NCBI GenBank assembly: GCA_023515725.1
Contig: JALDTO010000235.1
Span: 356,371 to 420,370 of the forward strand
Length of the DNA stretch: 64,000 nucleotides
Direction: 5' to 3'
Origin: Amoeboaphelidium protococcarum X5
Lineage: Eukaryota; Fungi; Aphelidiomycota
Shown here: piece by piece, positions 13,776 to 52,780 of the stretch
How positions within the stretch are numbered: position 1 is the stretch's first letter
How the letters are laid out: every line of letters begins with the position of its first letter
Made by a program: the position numbers and the translations under genes
The notes under the pieces: generated by a model
What the model saw: only the letters and a program-made list of their open reading frames with translations
Told to the model about the DNA's origin: nothing
Database searches by the model: none

Positions 13776-15181
13776 ATGGTCAAAAGACGTAGAAGTAAGC
13801 CGATATTCAACTCTATAATGTATTTAAATTTCACCTTGTGTAGGCTCCGTAACTCCTTCGTGGACTAGATTTTTTGCTCTCTAGAAATAGAAAGAAGCAT
13901 CTTAGAATGGGACTGGTAGATTGACGGAGCGCCAGTAACTTGCCCTCTTGAAGAACTAGGAAAATATACCTCTGGCCAATAGCGATTTGTTGTAAGTTAC
14001 TGATGGTAAACTAAAGAAGCCAACCAAGAAAAGAAAGCTCTCTGTCATGTCTGAGGCGGTGATTCCCAAATAACATTCTGAAATCGGTTTGAGTTTCTAA
14101 ACTTCGCCCAATAAGGCTTTGGCTGAACGTACGGTATTCTCATCTTCTCCGCTGTCAGATACTAGCTCTAAATTGGAATTGTCTGACAGAGCTGATGACG
14201 AAATTGTATAGACATTAACTTTAGATTATGCGCCTAATTAGGAAGCCGAGGAGGTTCTTGTTTCAGAATAAGTTTTGAAACGCGCCGCTTCTCCATAGAA
14301 AGAGAATCTGGTGATTAGATCCTCAGTGCAAGATGTATCTCTGCCGCCTCGTGTATAGTAAGTCTAATAACTTTGGCCTGGTCAATCTTAGGTACACAGT
14401 TCATTATTGAAGTAGCTGAATGGTCAAGCGGACAAGTTTTTGTTTCAGTTTGATAAGCCCACCTTCAAGCTATGCATTGATCCATCTATATTTGGCAATT
14501 TATTGAGCGATCGCACCCCGGACTATTTTGATAAATTAGATTCTCAGATGCAGTTGTTGAATAAAGTTTTGCAAGACTTTAAAATGGAATGTGTTTAGAA
14601 GACCAGGAGAGTTTTGCTTCAGATTCAGTGTGAATGGTAGTCTGTTGTTTCGCAGTTTGATGGTAATTGTGCAGCAAATTCGCGATTTGAAACTGTACTT
14701 CGCGTGAAAACCAGTCGATTGATATTATAAAGATATAATGATATTAGGAAAATTGTCGTAAGTTTTTTTGTAATCATTTATAAATCTACAAGATCTATTA
14801 ATTATTTTGTAGGATGATCTGATGGAAGATTTAGCCTTGAAGCTGGATATGTTATTAGATGGCCTGATCCTTACAATGTACTCGCTTATTACTTTTGAAT
14901 GCCGTGAATTCAACGAATAAATTATCAATTTGGAGCAGGAAGCAGTTTCAGGTCGATATAACACGGTTAGCATAATTCCCAGTGGCGAACGGTTGCTGGA
15001 CAAGTGGGCTAGATTCGCCACCAAGATTGAACTCACTGACGGTACTACAGTCTATGAATTAAGTGTTGTATAAGTCTTGATAGCCGCTGTGCATCCACGT
15101 TGCAAGACATTGTCAGAGCTGGTTGAGTACATTCTAAAACAGGTTCGACCCAATCTTGGATTTCTATGTTAGATTGTCTGA
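13776..15181 (+). CDS. Hypothetical protein with two probable introns (about 13795-13843 and 14758-14812); 3' end uncertain
   Basis: Long table-6 frames joined by GTAAG..TAG introns; basic stretches KRRR and KKRK. No recognised domain. Confidence 0.55.
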
Positions 15182-38524: not shown

Positions 38525-39249
38525 TTTAGCATAAGTATCAGTATCTTCTGTTTCAAAGTTTTGTAGGGGACTTTAAATATCAAACTAATCAGTAATAGCC
38601 AATAAGAATATAGATACCACTTCCAAGACGACGTAATAGGTACTTTCATCGAATCCACTTCAGCGAAAGATGAATGCTGCACGATTTATTCATTTTTTCC
38701 GAGAGGTGTGACTGTGCCCTGTCAATCCTCATCCTGATGCATTATCACCCACATGATTCACCACCCGTGTGTTTGACTTTATACTCATCACAGAGCGCGA
38801 GTTTACAGTGATTCTGACAGATATTGACAGATCTTGCGTGAAAGCTTATAGGAAAGTCTAAGTATAATATTGAATGGAAATGCTTTGATAAATTTAGCTC
38901 CAATTTCTAATAAACATCGAGTACGTACACTATCATTTAAGTGGTCATTTGAACTCTCTATAAAAACCCCATATAGACACATTGGATTAAAAATGGACGT
39001 TGACTTGAACGAAGAGCATTTCAAAAAGTGTCGGCCAGACTCGACACACTAGACACATACGTTTGTATTACTTAGCACGTTAAATGAATCTAATTTCAGG
39101 TATATACAAAACTGTTCTATATTCTGTACACGAATGAACTGACCAACCAATCACATCAGCTGAGCGTAAAACCACGTCGTTTCTTCTCGCGCCAGAATCC
39201 TCCGTCAAAGAGCCCAACGCTCACGTTTGCTCTTTCGTGATTACTTTTG

Positions 39250-42200
39250 GGTACCTTACTACTCTTAAGCCAAATGTCGCTACAAAATTGTCGCTAACAC
39301 GATCAAACGAATGTCGCTGACAATGTTGTTGACAATGTCGCTACATAAACTGCGCGTGCGACCAACACTGTTTCAGAAATATCAGCTTCAGTATCAGATA
39401 TACAGTTGCCTATATCTGACTCTGATATCAGCATTCAAAATAAAAAGTGCCGTGAGAAGCCTAAAAGAAAGTCGTAGTCAAAATATAGTATGATTTAATT
39501 TCCAATCTCAATACTTATTTCATTACTTTTGTAGAGCGAACTTCACTGTTAAGAGAGATTTTGAGAATGAACACTACCAATGGAATGTCCATCAGCAATT
39601 ATGTCCCTCCTCCTGGTGCAAGGAAGATCAAGAGGCAGAGAGAAGACGCAGAAAATGCACCGATCCATCCTGGTAAGACTTGGAAGTGCCCGATATGTAA
39701 AAATCTTCATTTCCCATCTAATAAGAAGCCGCACACTAAATTTTGTTTGGAATAGTTAAAGAAGAACAACAGTATCGCAGGTTCCGCGAATACTTTGTCA
39801 AGTTGGCTGACTGGAGCATCCTTACAATCAGTGGACTCTTTCGCTAATGTACCAGTTCATCAATCCGCGTCTGATCAGACGCCTGAAACAAATGATATTA
39901 ATGCTCATCATGATACTACCTCCTCAGTCGAAAATGATGATCAAGTTAATGCCACGTTAGTGATTGAGTAGAAAGATTAGAATTGGAGAAGTCATCCCTC
40001 CACCGCATTTATAGTCAAGTACACTGATGAGATTGACTACGCCATTAAAGGAACAGGTTCGCGCGGCTATCAATGCAATGCAACGTCGTCAAGGTGTCAT
40101 GGTGTCTGCGATTGCAAGCCGCTGAATCCTCTGTCCTGGCGTGATATCTGGATTTATCCGCCTAATCCTTTATTAGTCTCAGATTATATGGAGAGCTAGG
40201 ATTTTGTGAAGGAGAAAGTTATATTCTGGACGCCAGAAGTGTTTTTCCATCATCTTGGTGTTCGCCACATGCCTTGTCCAGTTCATGGCGTTGTGGATGG
40301 TCACGTTAAGGTAGCAGGCTGGTCAGCAGTAGGGCCTCGAAAAGTAATAGGCATTGGTCAGTCGTATTACATCATGTTCAAGAGGTACAAATGCAATCTG
40401 TGTCACTGTGGTACTGGTGGCAGGACTGGTAAGGAGTTTCGTGGAATAGATCCAGATACTTTGCAGCATCTTCCTCCTCATGTTTAGCAATAGTTGCCGT
40501 GTACGGTGATTGACAACACGATCCTGGACAACTAATTGATTTAATTAATGGATAGGATGATCATGCGAGGAGTCTCTTTTAATGAGTTTGTAAAGATGTT
40601 GGATGAGCTGTTCAACAACTAGCATTAATCAAGACATCTTGCCTATCTGTCCGCATCAACATTTGTTAGAAGGAACCCATAGAAGACTTTAATGTTTTAA
40701 GCTTTGCCTGCACTGATTGACCCATTTCCAGAATTCAGCGACAAAGATTAGTATAACGTATCCATTCCATCCACTACTGTTTTAAAGAAATTCTATTATA
40801 AGAGCCAAATGGATGTGTATGATCTGAAGAACGCCGCTGTCGCGCAAGTTACTGGCAAAGTTTTGAGCGGTGATCACACTTTCAAAGCAGCCAAGGTGCC
40901 TGTGTCTAAGTCTCAGTAGATATTTGAGGGATTATACTCCTTGGTGAATGAGTATGGCCAAGTAGCTGGATTCTGGCTTGTGCCAAACAAAAGTCTGAAA
41001 GAGTTGACTGGTGAATTTGAAGTCTTGAAGCAGCGCTATGCGGCCAAAGATGAAGAGGGTCCTCAGGCTTTCTTCACAGATCTCTGCTGCACTGAAAGAG
41101 CATTTCTCTCTGATATGTTTGAATCTCTGTCAGCTACTGGATAAGGATAGCGAGTACTCTTGGATATATTTCATTTCATGGAGCGGTATCCTGTTAAGAA
41201 GAAACATCCTCTATACTCTCTCTTTGCCTCCAACCTCCGCGACGCGATATTCATCTGTTCTGAAGAAGACATGCAAGATGTGAAGTCAGTATTACAGCAG
41301 CGTGGAGTATCAGATAAGTAAATGGATCAGATCAAGAGAAGCTATCTATTGCGTAATGGTAAAGTGAGAAGATTTGTTCCACCTGCGGATATTTTGTCGA
41401 ATAGAATTGATCAGGTGGTCTAAATGTTCAGAGCGGTTAACAGTGAGTTCATTGATGATCAAGTAATGAAACATCACGAGCGTAATCTGAAGCACGCCAA
41501 AGATGGCTGTTTATCAGATCCTCCTGGTGTTGACATGTACTTGCAATTAAAGCCTGGAGATGATGGATCTTTTAAGTAGTTCAAGTGTTTTAGAGGTACC
41601 AGCCAATAAGAAGGATATCACATGATGTTGTACAATGCGTTTTAAGCAAAGTCTATCTCTCCTGAGCTATATAATGTTATGCTCATGGACTTTGTCTACA
41701 GAAGAAATCAAGATGCGGCACTGACCTGTGGGCTGACTCCGGATTTTCATATTTACAACCCACTAGTGCTGAGCTAAATTAAGCAGTTGTATGTCGACAA
41801 TGCGAAATACTTCAAGTGTCCTGTTTTTGAGAATCTGACCATTCCACAGGTATCTGAATTCTCAAAATCTGTTAAATTTGGCTGTAGTAAGTATTTGGGC
41901 AAATCTCTTGATCTAAAGAACATTTCTGACTAGTAGCTGATGATGGAATGCGAAGGTGGCTTTGATGAAGAACTGATTGATGCACTGGCCGATCCAGTTG
42001 AAGTTGATTTGACTGTTATTGATATGGATTAGAGTGATATATCTACTGAGCCCATCAAGCTGAACTCTGATGATATGATCTCTAAGTTTGCATTCAATGT
42101 CATATCACGTCCCGTCTCCTCCCAAAAAGAGCTCATCTTATTCATGTCACTGTTTGAACAATATTGCACCAAGAAAAACGGTGATGATAAGTAAGTAGAT

Positions 42201-43285
42201 TATGAGTAAATGGCTGATCGATGGAATTTTCTGGTTTATAACAAGATTGCCGCCTGCTCAAATTAGTCTGAAGTTGATGATTTGTTATCAGAATACTCTT
42301 TTAAAGCACCAAGCCATTTGAAGAGTTTTGAAGATATTGTGGAACGTAAGTTGGCATGCAAATACGCGATTGATCCATTTAAGGCCCAGTTCAGACAGCT
42401 ATAAAATCATTTGACTGACCCAACAGCATTGCATATTCCGTTCGAAATTCCGTAGTTGCATTAGGTGTCTACTGAGTAAACTGTCTAAGTAGTTGAACAT
42501 GTATCTGTAGAAACACAGACTTCATTGAACAATTTGAGCTGCATCTGTCCTGCTACTCAGTCTGTTTAGAGTGTCAATGATTTGCTTGCTACTGCAGATT
42601 AGGATATTTAGAGATTAGTTGATAGTATAGACGATGCTTACTTCACCAATCTGGATATGGGCACTTTGTTCAATCCAGTTTTGGGTCTGCCTGATGGTGA
42701 TGATATTCCTAGAGTTGACAATTTTGGAGAGAATGTAGACATCAACGAACAGCCGACCTTTAACTAATTAACTTATCATACCGTCGATATCATTTAAGCT
42801 GATACTGGGCCTGTCACAATGACTGAGGCTGTCAATTTGACTGAACTGCTGCGTTAGAGATTCGGCGACGACGTGTTGACACCTGAAAACGGATTTGTCA
42901 ATGAAGAAGAGTTGGACAGTAATTTGAGAAGCGAATCAGTGAAACAAGTCTGCAAAATCTGCTGGAAGCCAAGATTGATGGCTGATTCCAATTAATGTAC
43001 TGAAGGCCATTCTTCCAAAAGATGCGATGCATCAAGTTAGTTAGACGATTCTTTGTTGTAAATGCGTACAAGTCTCTATAAAAAGTTCAGAAAGCGTGTA
43101 GAAAGAGAGAGAAAGTTGAAATAGACGTGATTTTATGAACTGATTGAGTAATTGAGTGGATATGATCGCAGATCTTCGGTTTCTTCTTACTCATCCCTTG
43201 AAATCCGTATAAAATATCGCAACCGACCTGCGGTCGGCAGCGATATAATTTTTTCCCGACTAGGCGTATAACCATATAATTTGCC
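39250..43285 (+). mobile_element. Putative autonomous DNA transposon (Mutator/IS256-like DDE), no long TIRs
   Basis: Candidate 9-bp TSD TTACTTTTG at 39241-39249 and 43286-43294; GG..CC termini with roughly 30 bp of degenerate inverted similarity; subterminal TGTCGCT array; contains the transposase ORF. Confidence 0.6.
39567..43130 (+). CDS. Transposase-like protein, DUF6729-type N-terminal region plus DDE core with DxxH motif
   Basis: 1188-codon intact table-6 ORF. WTPE..CPVH..GW..GPRKV..RYKC region; SGDHTFK (40872), FTDLCC (41079), LDIFH (41163), GCLSDPP and RGTSQQEGYH (41610); Cys/His knuckles at both ends. Confidence 0.85.
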
Positions 43286-43361
43286 TTACTTTTGATTATT
43301 CAGCACAATACCTGCTGCAGAAAATACCTGACAAAAGTAGACGACGCGTGGATTTTTACAT

Positions 43362-46300
43362 ATGTTAGTCTTACCATTGGTAATATTTAGTCTTGCGTAT
43401 TTGGTGCATGCTGGATAAGTGCAGTAGAAGAGCACTGTGTTCAAGCATGCTCCAGAGAATTATTTCTTCTTCAAGAATTCAGAGGTGTTGTTATTGCATG
43501 AGAGAATAAGTAACTAGATTTGGAGATCTGCCGATGCAGGATGGTCTTGGTACAAGGCGTCTGGTATCTCTGAGGGCACTGAGTCAAAGGTCATGATTGA
43601 GCATCCTTTTGATAATCAGAAGGCATTTGTCGTTACCAATAGCAAGGATTTATACATGACTAGTAATCGCGGTGAGAGTTGGTCAAAGTTATCGCTTCCG
43701 CTGGAACCAATGGCCATGTCCAAGGCTGCTTTGTAATTTCACGCTACACGCTCTCCCCATCTACTCTTCCTGGGTCGTTCTTGTCCGTCATCTGGTGGTA
43801 GTTCTCAATGCTATGATGAGGCTTATTATTCCCGAGATGATGGCAAGAGCTGGAAGTCGCTCAAAAAGTATGTGTCTTAATGTGTGTGGGCCAATGGAAG
43901 TCCTGAATTCCAATCGCGTCCTGTTGATGCTATATTCTGTTCTGAGCATGAAGGTAAAGGAAGCTCAATGTCTGAGAGTTCAGATTTGAGATTGCTCTAC
44001 TCTGAGGATTACTTCGTCACTGAGAAAGTTCACACTTTCGATAATAATCAGATGACCGGAGTGGTTGGTATTGGATTTGTGAGCAAGTTTTTTGTGACTG
44101 CTGTGAAGTAGAGTTCTGGATCTGATTTGGACCTGTACGTCTCTGTGGATGGTTTAATTTTCCGCAACTCAAAGTTTCCTCTGGATGCGAATATTGAGGA
44201 AGATGCATACACTATCCTGCAATCATCTGCCGCATCTTTGAACGTGGACGTATTCACCTCCCGTGGATACAGAAAAGAGTTTGGTACTCTGTACAAGTCC
44301 GATTCAGAGGGTAGGTACTTTGTAAAGTCGCTGGAGAATACCAATAGAAAGACTTCAGGTATTGTGGATTATGAACGCGTGTAAGGAGTTGAAGGAGTAG
44401 CGCTGGCTAATATAGTCTCCAATCCTGATGATTTGCGCAATGGCGGCGATGGCAAGAAGAAGTTGGAATCTCGCATTTCTTATGACGATGGCTCTTATTG
44501 GCGCTTTATAAATCCGCCATTAAAAGATGTTAAAGGTAAACCGTTTAAATGTTTAACCGATGGTGGCGGCAGTATTCCGAATGAGAAGTGTGCACTGCAT
44601 TTGCATTCCGTTACTTCAGTGAAGAATGTTGGTCGCGTGTTTTCAGATGCTGCGGCTCCTGGTATCATCATGGGCGTGGGAAATGTCGGTGACTATCTAT
44701 AGGAGTATGATGATTGTGACACCTTTGTCAGTTCTGACGGTGGTCTTAATTGGCAAATGATCAACAAGGGACCTGCCAAGTTTGAAACTGGTGATTAAGG
44801 TGCACTCCTGGTGTATGTTGAAGATGGGAAGAATGTTGAATAGCTGTCATACTCGCTCAATTTTGGGCGTACTTGGTTTGATATTAAGCTTGATCAGAAG
44901 CTCAGAGTTGAATCCATTAGCAGTGACCCTGAATCGACATTGCGAAAGATGATACTTGTAGGATCTGATAAGGATTCATCTAACTTCAATGTTATTAGTC
45001 TAGACTTTTCCAAGTTACATGACAGACAATGTTCTGATAATGATTTTGAGTGGTGGCGTGCTCGCGGATTAGGAGAGAATGAGCAGTGTCTCTTGGGTCA
45101 CTACCAAGATATCAAACGCAGGAAGTAGGATGCAGAGTGCTATGTGGGCCGCGATTATAAGCAGCCGGAAATGAGAAAGTAGAATTGCCAATGTACCGCC
45201 GAGAATTTCGAATGTGATTATGGATACATTGCTGATAAGAATAACCCAGAGAAATGTGTACGCTCTGGAGAGGCGATTCCTCTTGATGGATAATGTACCG
45301 GAAATTCTGATGAGTATCTAGCATCATCTGGCTACCGAAAGATTCCTGGGGATACTTGTGTGGGTGGTGTCGATTTGGCCAAGAAGGTTAAAGTATCATG
45401 TGACAATGTCGATCGCTCATCCAATGTTAAATCCTATCTTACCATGATTCCTGCGCCCGTAGTGAAGAAGTATTATATGAAAAAGTCGTAGGTGATTTTG
45501 TTATAGGATTTGGAAGGTGCGGTTCATCGTAGCGGTAATAATGGCTAATCGTTTGATGTCCTGTCCATATCTGGTGTTGGAAAGTCTGGTGATGCTTTCA
45601 AGGTCAGGTAACTGTTCTTCCATGACACTTAGTATAGTAGAGTGTACATGTTAACTTAGAACGACAAGGTTTATTTCTCCAGTGATTATGGTTCCAGTTT
45701 CAAAGAAATGAATTTGCCATCTATGCCTAATCAACTGGGGTCGACTTTACTGGATTTCCATCCTACTGAAAAGGATTGGCTTCTGTTTATTGGCGGTACA
45801 AAATGTCCTCACTGTCGTACGAGTGTCTATGTCTCTAAAGATAATGGTGCAACTTGGGGCCGTGAAATTGACACATTTGTGTACAAGTGCCAGTTCTCAC
45901 AGGATACGGAATTTCGCAAAGTGGAGAAGGATGCTATCTTCTGTTCGGCTTATCATTAGAAGTTTGGAGATTAAGATACCTTTGGTAATGCTGCGTAAAC
46001 ACCATCAGGAAACGTGCTTAACCTGTACAAGTATGAAAGACTGGGTGAGGGTGAGAAGAAATTGCTGGCTGAGAGAGTTGTACAATTCTACGTCTATGAT
46101 CGTTATCTGACGGTAGCTGCTGAAGATGGGAATAAGGTGAGATTACTTCTGTCTGAGGATGGCGTCAACGTAGTGGATGCCCAATTTCCACCTAACACTC
46201 AGCTGTCTAAGAATGCTTTTACTGTGGTGCAGTCGAACACTGGATCGATTATGTTGGACGTTTATCAAAGTCAGAGTATTGGTCAAGAGTTTGGCGATCT

Positions 46301-49300
46301 CTATTCTTCAAATTCCAACGGTACCTTCTATACTCTATCTTTGAAGAACACGAATAAGAATGCCAATGGTCTGGTTGATCTGGAGTAAAACCAGAGCTTG
46401 GATGGCGCCTTTATAGCCAATGTTGTGTACAATGCAGCTGACTTGATTCGCGGCGGATTGAAGAAGATTAAGACTGTGATGTCGTATGATAATGGAGCAA
46501 ATTGGGACATCATAAGAGAGGTGTATGACACTAATAGAAAGCGTATTGAATGCTCTACTGGTCAAGACTGTCATTTGAATTTACATGGACGTGCTGATAT
46601 CACTTGGTCTGGTCCTATATTCAGTAGTAAGACTGCAGTGGGTCAATTGATGGGAGTGGGAAATTTCGGTCCTCAACTGCTTGATTACTCATTGAGTAAT
46701 ACGTATTTTAGCCGAGATGGAGGTTAGACTTGGACTGAAGTAAAAAAGGGACCTCATATTTTTGAATTCGGTGACTATGGAGCACTGCTGGTAATGGCTG
46801 CCGATTACGAATTGACGGACAAGCTGATATACTCTGTGGATGATGGCAAGACGTGGCATGAGCACAAGTTTTATGAGAAGCCTGTCAGAGTGACTGCATT
46901 GATGATTGACAGCGAAGGTGCCGGAAGTAAGTTCCTGGTGCTGGCTAGCGTGTAGAAAGATTCTAATTCTCGCGGTGGATTCTTTGGATCTATCAGCGAT
47001 TTTTTGAAATCTCTATTTGGCTCTGGTGGTGTAAGTTCATCTATTGGACACCAGCAGGTTGTTGTACAGGTTGATTTTAGTCAAGCGGCACCGAAGAATT
47101 GCCGTTTCAATGGTGATGGTAGTGGTGATTATGAAAAGTGGAATCCTCTGTCTTCGGATTGTATTCTTGGTCAGGAGATGACTTATTGGAGAAGAAAGGT
47201 TGATTCGGTCTGTCATATTGGAGACTCGCGTCCAACTCAACCGGCAAATGCTAGAACTTGCACTTGTAGCCGCAAAGATTATGAATGTGATGTTGGATTC
47301 TGGAAAGATTTGCGCGGAGAGTGTGTGCTGTAAGGACCTGATCCATACGAACCTGTAAACTGTCGCAAGGGTGAAAAGTACACTGGACGTAGCGGTTACC
47401 GTAAGATATCAGCCACAAAGTGCAGTGGTGAAGTGTCTGAATTGGAGAAGAAAGTTGAGAGAAGTTGTCAAGAGTCCAATAATGGCGGAGTGATTGTACA
47501 GCCGCCTACTGATGGTAAGATTGGAGTTGAGCTGTAGAATTTCGATTATGCCGTGGATAGTGTCATCTGGTTCGATAAGAGTTTGAATGCAGTCCTGAAA
47601 ACTACAGATGGTTGGATATGGCAGACATCTGATGGTGGCTCCAGATGGACGAAGAGCGACATTCCTGATAGAATCACCACAATGGTGTAGAATTAGTACT
47701 ACAAGGAGCGAGTTTATTTTTTGACTTCCGATTCCAAAGTTCATTATTACACCACGGACTCTGGCAAGTCTTTGACCATGCTCAATGTCCCTGAAGTACC
47801 TAATTCTTTTAATGCTCCTATTCTAGAATTCCATGCAGAAGAAGCTGACTGGATCATTTATACAGGAAATCGGTACTGTCCTGGATCTTAATGTCACACT
47901 GTAGCCTTCTATACTCAAAATAATGGGTTGAATTGGAAAGAGCTGACTACTTACGTCACAGATTGTGAGTGGGCTAGAGATGCTCTATTCAAGAATGTTG
48001 ACAAACAGATGATCTTCTGCGGCGCGTACTCTGACAAATCCGGTAGCTAACATGAAAAAGTGCTTGGAGATCATGGTCGCCCGTCATTATACAAGTCGGA
48101 TAATTTCTTTGGGTCTCAGGAGATGGTATTTGATAATCTGGTAGGATTTGCCATTTCAGAGAATTTTATGGTCGCGGCGCTCAATAGTAATTAGGACTTA
48201 TCTGGTAAAAGTCTTACATTTCAGGTGTCTATGGATGGTGAAAAATTCGCGCCCGCTGTATTTCCACCTGGTGTTGATGTATAGAATCGTGGATTTACCG
48301 TGTTAGAAGCTGGAAGTGGATCAGTGTATTTAGACATGTTCAAACATGGTTCATATGGTACCGAGTGGGGAACTCTGTTTATATCTAATTACAATGGCAC
48401 GTACTACAGTGTATCTCTGGATGGTACAAATAGGAATCCTGAAGGCTTTGTGGACTATGAGAAGATGTTTGCAGTTGAAGGTGTCGCCATAGTCAACAAG
48501 GTGATGAATAAAGAGTCTGTTGCCATTGGTGGTAAGAAGGAAATTAAATCGTTTATCACCTACTCTCAGGGAGCTGAGTGGAAGTCAATAAAGGCTCCAA
48601 TCAAAGATCTTGAAGGTAATTCGATTGATTGTCTGGCTCAAGATGGCTGCTCTCTCAATTTCCATGGCTATACTGAGCGAAAGGTGATCAAGAATGAAAT
48701 GTCTGATGAATAGGCTGCGGGAATCTTCATCGGTGTCGGTAATGTGGGGAAGAACTTACTCAGCTACCAGCAGAGTAATGTCTATTTGACCACCGATGCT
48801 GGAAGTACTTGGAGATAGATTTAGAAAGGACCTCACCTATTTGAGTTTGGAGATCATGGCTCAGTTATAGTGCTCGTGAACGCCGTCGAAGCCGTTAACT
48901 ATATCTACTATAGTGTTACTGAAGGCGCCAAGTTTGACAAGTACGAGTTCCATCCTACCATGAAGATTTATGCAGATAGATTTGTCACTGATCCTAGTGG
49001 TGTGAAATAGGAATTTCTTCTTACTGGACGCGTGGCAGACTCATCATCTGGTTAATCTGCAGTGTTCAAGTTGGACTTTTCAAAGCTGCGCTCTAATCAG
49101 TGTATTCTTGACACTAAAGATTCTGGCCGCTCTGATTTCGAACTTTGGTCTGTCTCTGATCATTCTGGTAATAGCTGTATCTTTGGTCATAAGACTGAGT
49201 ACTACCGAAGGAAGCCGGGTAGAAACTGTTACATTGGTGATTCTTTCAAGAATGATAAGATAGTGACAAATTGCTAGTGTACTGAAGCTGATTTTGAATG

Positions 49301-49814
49301 CGATGCTGGATATTACCGCGATCCTACTGATCATAAATGTAAGCCTGTTGCTGGAGAAGGTGCCACTGTGTGGACAGAATGTGAGAATGGTTAGAGGCAT
49401 ATCTCGACTGGATATAGAAAGCATTCTTTGTCCACTTGCCAAGGTGGCATAAATCTGGACAATCCAAGTGTGGTGGAAGGTTGCACAATGCCGGGAAGAT
49501 CGTCGAATGGAGGATCTATCGCTGCCGGTATTCTGATACCTTTGTTCGCAATTGCCGGTCTCGGACTGGTTTATTACAGAAAGAGAATTGCTCCCTATCG
49601 TTATTCGATTAGGCTTCCAGTGTCTGATTCTACTTCTGGAACTGGCATGGCCGGAAGTTCTTCATGGCGTAGTGCTGTCAACTTCTCTGCCGTATCGAAA
49701 GGCTTTGATGCTGTACGCGATTTGTTCAGTGGCCTATTCACTGATATCCGTGCAAGAACTGGTTATAGATCTGTGCCTCTCACTGATGAAGAGGTTCACA
49801 TGGAGAATTATTGA
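43362..49814 (+). CDS. VPS10: Vacuolar sorting receptor Vps10/Pep1 with three VPS10 modules
   Basis: 2151 codons. Signal peptide, many Asp-box SxDxGxxW repeats, three Cys-rich 10CC regions ending GYRKIPGDTC, GYRKISATKC and GYRKHSLSTC, TM helix, cytosolic tail with YRSV. Confidence 0.95.
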
Positions 49815-51484: not shown

Positions 51485-52780
51485 TCATTCTTTTAAATCA
51501 GAGAGATATTATGGAGACAGGAAGCTCTGGAAAGCCAGAACTGAGGACTTATCACCATGCTCAGGAAGCGACTCATCACTATCGTCCAGGATGTTCAAAT
51601 TATTGACTTGCTCCGGTGAAAGCACTCGAATTGTCTAATATGAAGGCGATCCATCCGAATTACATCCTGTTTAGAATCTCGGCTGCACCTAATTCTGAGA
51701 CTAAGCATGTTTTGATACGCGACTACTTTCACCATCTGACTTTCGCTCTTTTGATTTGCTAATACTATCAATTAGTCTTACTGCAGCTCGCAATGGAGTC
51801 TTTAGTATATCGACGACAGTTCTTTGTGATGTAGATTTTTCAATAGGTGCTACCAGCGACTGACAAAGGCAAATTACAATTGTCTTGATTAATTCACGGC
51901 CAACTGGGTGCGTCAAACTAGACGCAGCATTCACATTAGGCGCATCTGTATCGAACGGAAAGGTTAAAACACGATCTCTAGTAGAGTTCTCGCAGAAAAC
52001 CTTGAAATGCGACGCGGTCAAAAGAATTAACGGGACATTAAACGCGTACAGAGCCGCTAAAACTTGAGCTAACCGACACTTTTCATACCAAGGACGGCCC
52101 TCAGCATAAGATACACTACTTTTAATTTCTGTGCAAAACAACAGCTTGCTGGACTCTTCATCAGAAATGTTCATGTCGCATCTACTGGCATAATCATACT
52201 TTGGTTGAGACATAAAGCCGCCAACCACCACCTTGTTCTGGTCATCAACCTCAACCTAAATAGACATACCTGTGGCAATTGTTGAAACTAACCGGAACAA
52301 TTTCAAAGCCACTATCGATTCTCGTTAATTACTTCTTTATAAAGACTACAATGCTTAGATTACCTATGTGTCATCGATCGCTGTTTCATACATGGGACGC
52401 CATACGTTTTGCACGCCTAAATAATCAGCTAGGCAGTCAATATTGTCGGCTCCCGCGCCATTCATATTCTGAACGGATCTATATACACCAGGATGAAAAT
52501 TATCATGAGTCAACTTGGATGCAAAGGGCCAATATATCAAGTCACATAATTGGCCATCGGCAGCAATATGGTATCTGGATTATATCGCGAATCTCCCACT
52601 GACAATGTTGTTCTCCAGTACCTGTTTCCTCTCAGTCAAAAGATCTTCCACAGAACCGCGATACTCGATGTCAAGATCCTGTATTTCCATGCCATTCAAA
52701 GAACTTACATCTGACTCTAAAATAGAAAGACGATCACTTGATTAGACGCGTACTGGTAGTGGCAGCTGCTCTGATATCAT
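51485..52780 (-). CDS. Uncharacterised protein with a probable PD-(D/E)xK restriction-endonuclease-like fold
   Basis: 432-codon table-6 ORF. E..SRCD-x15-EIK..AQ spacing fits an REase-like active site. Confidence 0.7.

Follow-up and report, generated by a model that had tools for sequence, protein, structure and literature searches.

What kind of mobile element occupies positions 39249 to 43285 of the 64,000-nucleotide stretch of Amoeboaphelidium protococcarum X5 DNA analyzed here (hereafter the window), and by which route might it transpose? An initial annotation, made from the letters alone, had described a mobile DDE transposon adapted to the host genetic code, with a candidate 9-bp target-site duplication (TSD) and no proper terminal inverted repeats (TIRs), and had tentatively assigned it to a poorly described branch of the Mutator group. 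Mobility and adaptation are borne out below. The assignment is not, since protein comparisons place the element in Dada, a superfamily described by Kojima and Jurka in 2013 (PMC3706591). With an 8-bp TSD and no small-RNA gene at its site, it is classed as a variant of the Dada lineage rather than a canonical target-specific family. Taken as a whole, the explanation that fits best, and that we consider very probable, is an intact and recent nontargeted Dada element with an 8-bp TSD at this locus and a likely IS256-like route of transposition. In sum, it is an active, well-mapped, nontargeted variant of a known superfamily, and it offers one testable mechanistic lead.

The element is mobile, multicopy, polymorphic, recently amplified, and intact. 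We compared the window with contigs from eight of the 24 listed public runs, representing six samples (X1 and X2 come from one sample, and X9 and X10 are two runs of another). Joints corresponding to the empty site, which the initial annotation had suggested looking for, were found in X9, X10, X5, and X14, and X2 carries a second allele without the element. Depth in X1 reaches 1500 to 2100 inside the element, against 95 on the contig of the window's own flank, contig depth being only a rough guide to copy number. The corresponding protein cluster has 21 members, among which nine long gene models are 97.7 to 100% identical; one variant is 92% identical, and overall identity to a second family drops to 46%.

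The element and its TSD were delimited as follows.

39241 to 39248, plus strand: left TSD TTACTTTT, 8 bp (from the sequence; a single copy in empty alleles)
39249 to 43285, plus strand: whole element, 4037 bp, with ends GGGTACC...TTTGCC and no proper TIR (from contig boundaries)
43286 to 43293, plus strand: right TSD TTACTTTT, 8 bp (from the sequence)

Shared contigs of X10 start at 39249 and end at 43285, an X5 contig spans this interval with a foreign left flank, and loose contig ends lie at the same two positions, where the contigs part from the window. Of the boundaries first proposed, 39250 and 43285, the right one therefore stands and the left one is off by one base. The direct repeat behind that proposal, the 9-mer TTACTTTTG at 39241 and 43286, is present, but G39249 is kept in all eight distinct left junctions seen (the window, two from X1, one from X6, two from X9/X10, one from X5, and a head-to-tail joint), and the ninth base in two clean foreign right flanks is T and A. 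G39249 is accordingly part of the element, which leaves a TSD of 8 bp, and G43294 is a coincidental ninth-base match outside it. The initial annotation had itself warned that the 9-mer could match by chance. The window contains seven copies of it where 0.83 would be expected, one of them within the intron of the element, and three further exact 9-mer pairs bracket the open reading frame (ORF). At such a frequency the repeat alone is weak evidence, and it is the empty sites that prove insertion. As a separate observation, TTACTTTTG is about 8-fold enriched in the window, its other copies being at 14889, 17488, 39523, 56246, and 60553. One of these forms the 3' end of the element intron, and several are close to the ends of genes; TTACTTTTG could therefore be a motif that the host uses in splicing or at 3' ends.

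Flanks other than those of the window locus are one-sided 30-nucleotide (nt) reads. Their left target words are CTACTTTT, GAAGATTC, CTCCTTTT, AAGATTTT, GAAGATGC, and AAAGGCGC, and their right ones are AAAGTCTT and AATGGTTC. These words are mostly AT rich, often with a TT(T/C) end, and otherwise unrelated. The right flanks of X5, a consensus of two contigs, were not counted, as they fit the 8-mer AAAGGCGC only if ties are resolved alphabetically. The termini are degenerate, as first described: no proper TIR is found among the 25 longest inverted repeats, and without gaps the two ends agree at 3 of their 5 outermost bases and at 13 of the outermost 30. Gapped similarity of the 50-nt ends nevertheless exceeds that of shuffled sequences (3 of 2000), and short related motifs lie just inside both ends.

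39274 to 39341, plus strand: four left subterminal motifs (A/T)TGTCGC, at 39274, 39288, 39311, and 39335, overlapping the start of exon 1
43240 to 43262, minus strand: two related right subterminal motifs, TAGTCGG and ATATCGC, inverted

TGTCGCT occurs eight times on the plus strand of the window, four of them in the left subterminal region, and the left motifs are likely transposase binding sites.

The coding capacity of the element becomes apparent only under the host code, in which TAA and TAG (TAR) specify Gln. The locus has no ORF of at least 100 amino acids under table 1; table 6 gives a 1187-codon ORF on the plus strand (39567 to 43130) with 43 TAA/TAG codons. TAR accounts for 43 of its 77 Gln codons, compared with 42 to 65% in eight host genes, a mannosidase gene being excluded from the tally. 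Codon use in the transposase gene thus fits the host, which suggests a family adapted and confined to hosts with the TAR=Gln code. The window is eukaryotic, and its best protein matches are named A. protococcarum proteins; we take this host, an aphelid parasite of algae, to be a hybrid with the TAR=Gln code. The gene and its protein comprise the following parts.

39274 to 39487, plus strand: exon 1, with its ATG 25 bp from the left end (spliced translation identical to P0013)
39488 to 39534, plus strand: 47-nt GT..AG intron (an X6 contig skips exactly these 47 letters)
39535 to 43130, plus strand: exon 2, which holds the 1187-codon ORF
40146 to 40715, plus strand: DUF6729 (PF20499) match, residues 194 to 383, E value 1.7e-11
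40872 to 41612, plus strand: catalytic core, D436 (40872), D505 (41079), D533xxH536 (41163 to 41174), and E682 (41610)
42951 to 43025, plus strand: C-terminal CCHC knuckle, C1129, C1132, H1148, and C1153, kept in the second family

The uninterrupted ORF with its DDE and DxxH motifs, its DUF6729-like N-terminal part, and its terminal Cys/His knuckles are all as first annotated, the catalytic series closing with RGT..E682GYH. This ORF is intact, but it is not the whole gene: it lies within exon 2, and splicing extends the protein to 1269 amino acids, identical to gene model P0013. The second family (P0027) conserves both the N terminus and the splice-junction peptide. The X6 contig shows the spliced form rather than an expression level. 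The same contig extends 1429 letters into a foreign left flank beyond 39244; if the run is RNA, this would be a host-to-element read-through transcript. The N-terminal zinc ligands (C237, H240, C276, and C279) align with the family cysteines; the second is His here and C in 84 of 126 aligned relatives. Pfam searches up to an E value of 1 returned no MULE (Mutator-like element), Transposase_mut, KDZ, CxC, SWIM, or Ulp1 match.

Which superfamily does this transposase represent? Its core matches 1754 protein clusters at an E value of 0.001. Two of 294 proteins, P0248 from Danio aesculapii and P0243, match Dada-U6_DR exactly in the spacing of its seven published residues (PMC3706591), and a close relative of Dada-U6_DR has been reported in D. 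aesculapii (PMC8869645). The window protein (P0001) aligns with P0248 over 561 columns (E value 5e-22). The alignment keeps D, D, DxxH, and E in register, with spacings of 69 against 68 between the first and second D and of 177 against 176 between the second D and E. A fish match had led to 213 DUF6729-type proteins from fish, lancelets, and molluscs, P0248 and P0243 among them, and a profile of fish Dada scores the window protein at 115.9 bits, against 79.8 for P0158. D, D, D, H, and E are all kept in 100 of 126 aligned proteins. Most relatives (93 of 119) have 200 or more amino acids between the second D and DxxH, and 18 of the 34 scanned contain a 3'-5' exonuclease (PF01612). The Dada elements of Laccaria and Ectocarpus carry an exonuclease insert in this same interval (PMC3706591), and the exonuclease of P0158 looks, by eye, much like that of Dada-1_LB in Fig. 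S1 of that paper. The insert is absent from the window protein, in which 28 amino acids separate D505 from D533. In a tree of 64 rows hand-picked from the 294 proteins, without an outgroup and with FastTree support values, the window protein falls between the fish and the Laccaria-like proteins (3.46 and 3.21 versus 4.41), in a separate clade with 11 members (support, 1.0).

Judging from these alignments, DUF6729 is the N-terminal zinc-finger region of Dada. DUF6729-type proteins thereby gain a function, as the initial annotation had proposed; the term DUF6729 occurs in none of the papers searched. Viral contigs gave 22 pattern matches and no relatives. Among 94 candidates from metagenome contigs there were 7 relatives (22 to 35% identity), none with a tRNA, an Rfam match, or similar ends. 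The same species also harbors the second Dada family (P0004, P0005, and P0027), whose core is 59% identical and which has more than one copy; loose ends of X1 contigs at 40867 and 41100 were noted with it. Unusual architectures among the relatives (P0067, P0068, and P0035), namely one with a SAP domain, one with a set of three SH3 domains, and a multistretch protein of 3352 amino acids, may be fusions or gene-model artifacts.

The element has inserted in ordinary DNA, not in small-RNA genes. Neither a tRNA nor an Rfam family was detected in the 64-kb window, and neither an A nor a B box was found at the rebuilt empty site. Two ARAGORN calls there at a relaxed threshold, with 633- and 135-nt introns, were discarded as noise; an Rfam match inside the ORF (E value 0.71) falls far short of its cutoff. 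By eye, the seven other left flanks and the two clean right flanks are mutually unrelated and share no common gene. This behavior departs from the published picture, in which all Dada elements with definable ends lie in small-RNA genes with 6- to 7-bp TSDs (PMC3706591). Kojima's 2022 survey used only families flanked by small-RNA genes (PMC8869645), and a 2026 review describes every Dada family as specific to tRNA, rRNA, or snRNA genes (PMC13565253). The 2013 table also lists families without a known target (PMC3706591). For the Ectocarpus family, supplement rows give incomplete ends and a TSD of "?", and a fungal survey counted 1023 Dada copies by profile, their ends not being given in the excerpt (PMC5751038). 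Our literature search returned no report of nontargeted Dada families; Repbase and Dfam lay outside it and may hold some.

How might such an element transpose? We modeled residues 190 to 760 (predicted local distance difference test score [pLDDT], 93.7), and the predicted fold is an RNase H domain with a helical insertion domain. Among the matches listed, both programs placed the IS256-family transposase of ISCth4 (PDB 6xg8) first (Foldseek E value 1e-5; VIA Z 14.8, root mean square deviation 5.5, 352 residues aligned), ahead of Hermes (Z 9.5) and P (Z 8.1). A sequence search of PDB found nothing (best E value, 0.35). Among those matches, ISCth4 is thus the closest structural relative of the predicted model, in agreement with the IS256 kinship first suggested. 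ISCth4 generates 8-bp TSDs that are A/T rich, and its integration works best when the junction has a 6-bp flank-derived spacer (PMC7780238). In X9 and X10, we found the right end joined to the left end through AATCAA, a 6-nt spacer. A Trp before the catalytic Glu has been tied to hairpin chemistry in MULE and hAT (PMC5499845); the window protein has none between DxxH and E, and no alignment column there has a Trp in more than 52 of 126 relatives. The ISCth4-like fold, the 6-nt junction, and the missing Trp together favor an IS256-like route, though only to the point where it stands about level with hAT/MULE-like cut-and-paste, each somewhat short of an even chance and with a smaller share left to other routes.

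Under an IS256-like route, the transposase would bind the subterminal TGTCGC-type motifs in place of long TIRs, nick one end, and join it to a point about 6 nt outside the other end. The product would be an end-to-end junction, either a circle or a tandem dimer, that would then integrate with an 8-bp stagger into AT-rich DNA. With the ATG only 25 bp from the left end, a full-length protein would probably need a flanking host promoter or such a junction.

Published Dada data bear on how far this route might extend. Tandem Dada-U1 copies lie 6 nt apart with apparent 8-bp TSDs; a TSD of 6 bp was chosen over 8 partly from that spacing, without 8 being ruled out (PMC3706591). Some families, e.g., Dada-tA and Dada-tY, carry 6-nt flanks along (PMC3706591, PMC8869645), and a copy-out route has been suggested for KolobokP (PMC9587614). 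In our literature search, we found neither a copy-out proposal for Dada nor a report on Dada chemistry. More speculatively, Dada as a whole could be a eukaryotic copy-out/paste-in counterpart of IS256, with an 8-bp stagger and a 6-nt flank-derived spacer, and with RNA targeting as a lineage specialization. We regard this broader idea as doubtful, but if true, it would explain the 6-nt gap between tandem copies in fish, the apparent 8-bp duplications, and the flank carryover of Dada-tA and Dada-tY.

Several observations weigh against parts of our interpretation. The protein is no more than 22% identical to fish Dada, and its tie to Dada runs through the residue spacing of Dada-U6_DR and the exonuclease likeness to Dada-1_LB rather than through Repbase sequences. 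The TSD is seen on both sides at the window locus only. Two right flanks of X10 begin with the same two letters (a 32-nt record of depth 112.5, letters undisplayed), which strict 8-bp duplications of the left flanks AAGATTTT and GAAGATGC would not give; TSD length may therefore vary, and one 6-bp plus one 8-bp TSD would fit better. Flanks of 30 nt judged by eye could miss an RNA gene farther off. The fold matches listed include no MULE transposase, and for this reason the match to ISCth4 cannot separate Dada from MULE chemistry; the MULE Muta1 works through flank hairpins (PMC5499845). Both runs with the junction belong to a single sample, and its depth of 48.1 equals that of single-copy flanks (46.7 and 53.6), which makes a chromosomal dimer likelier than a rare circle. 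A 6-nt gap would likewise result if one copy had inserted, with an 8-bp TSD, into the two outermost bases of another.

The strongest alternative keeps the family assignment and replaces the route: ordinary cut-and-paste with flank hairpins, as in MULE and hAT, the 6-nt junction being a one-off local insertion. We judge it about as probable as the IS256-like route. DxxH is common to Dada, hAT, MULE, P, and Kolobok (PMC3706591), the junction has single-copy depth and occurs in one of six samples, and the precise empty alleles fit either route. On the other hand, the Trp important for MULE and hAT (PMC5499845) is absent between DxxH and E, and the 6-nt spacing of tandem Dada-U1 copies recurs with apparent 8-bp TSDs (PMC3706591). 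Insertion into the end of another copy predicts a left flank ending in AATCAAGG; the X10 records displayed do not include one, though a gap there proves nothing. The X10 junction record is 60 nt long, not 66, as might perhaps follow if the left flank of another copy were AATCAA; no donor flank for the junction is among the sequences seen.

Assignment to a Mutator (MULE) lineage that lacks TIRs and leaves a 9-bp TSD is improbable and already largely refuted. The DxxH motif, the GG..CC ends, and the ISCth4-like fold would suit it, and MULE TSDs of 8 to 10 bp (PMC5499845) include the length found here. The TSD is, however, 8 bp rather than 9, Pfam gives no MULE or Transposase_mut match up to an E value of 1, the relatives found are DUF6729/Dada proteins, and both the conserved Trp and TIRs of more than 100 bp are absent. 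Less probable still is a Zisupton/KDZ element. Such elements have 8-bp TSDs and features such as KDZ, CxC, and SWIM domains; the 8-bp TSD and the Cys-rich N terminus agree, but no KDZ, CxC, SWIM, or Ulp1 match appears in Pfam up to an E value of 1, and the positive evidence points to Dada. Finally, a domesticated single-copy gene bracketed by a chance 9-mer, the single-copy orthologue raised initially, has next to no likelihood: the 9-mer is common in the window and codon use matches the host, but alleles lacking the element, the many unrelated sequences next to its copies, and its high depth exclude it.

The surroundings of the element include a host gene immediately downstream.

43362 to 49814, plus strand: VPS10/sortilin gene, a neighboring host gene outside the element (ORF and Pfam)

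Its ATG lies 68 bp past the right TSD. In the public gene models P0003 (1716 amino acids) and P0018 (1498 amino acids), the transposase is fused to adjacent host genes, indicating that copies lie very near or within genes. Farther downstream, a 431-amino-acid ORF without a Pfam match (51485 to 52780, minus strand) has a D...EIK-like motif, a motif typical of the PD-(D/E)XK nucleases of Crinkler-type proteins.

Intact, compact, and polymorphic, with a single intron, mapped ends, and no RNA target, this family extends the range of Dada and offers a simple substrate for the study of Dada chemistry. Were the junction a true intermediate, a eukaryote would be using a transposition pathway known from bacteria. 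Compared with known systems, the element resembles IS256/ISCth4 in its predicted transposase fold, its A/T-rich 8-bp TSD, and, in one sample, a 6-nt end-to-end spacer. The two differ in that identity is 11% and that IS256/ISCth4 has TIRs of about 30 bp and neither introns nor such zinc fingers; copy-out/paste-in is established in IS256 and would extend to this element by inference only. With Mutator/MULE elements such as Muta1, it shares DxxH, a TSD within 8 to 10 bp, and subterminal repeats; those elements have TIRs of more than 100 bp, the conserved Trp, and hairpins, whereas this one lacks such TIRs, the Trp, and a Pfam MULE match. The closest correspondence is with Dada itself (Dada-U6_DR, Dada-1_LB, Dada-2_LB, and Dada-1_ES): the same DDE spacing, DxxH, an intron, the absence of TIRs, short inverted motifs in subterminal positions, recent copies that are nearly identical, and tandem copies 6 nt apart. 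The N-terminal four-ligand zinc finger (CCCC in Dada) is matched with His as the second ligand, and the C-terminal CCHC knuckle reads CX2CX15HX4C here and CX2CX9HX8C in Dada-U6_DR. At 4037 bp, the element is smaller than published Dada (4666 to 10979 bp), lacks the exonuclease insert of the Laccaria and Ectocarpus elements, and, unlike described Dada, is recoded to TAR=Gln. Its TSD is 8 bp (one both-sided locus) against 6 to 7 bp, and where described Dada elements occupy a fixed site in multicopy small-RNA genes, this one has no such target.

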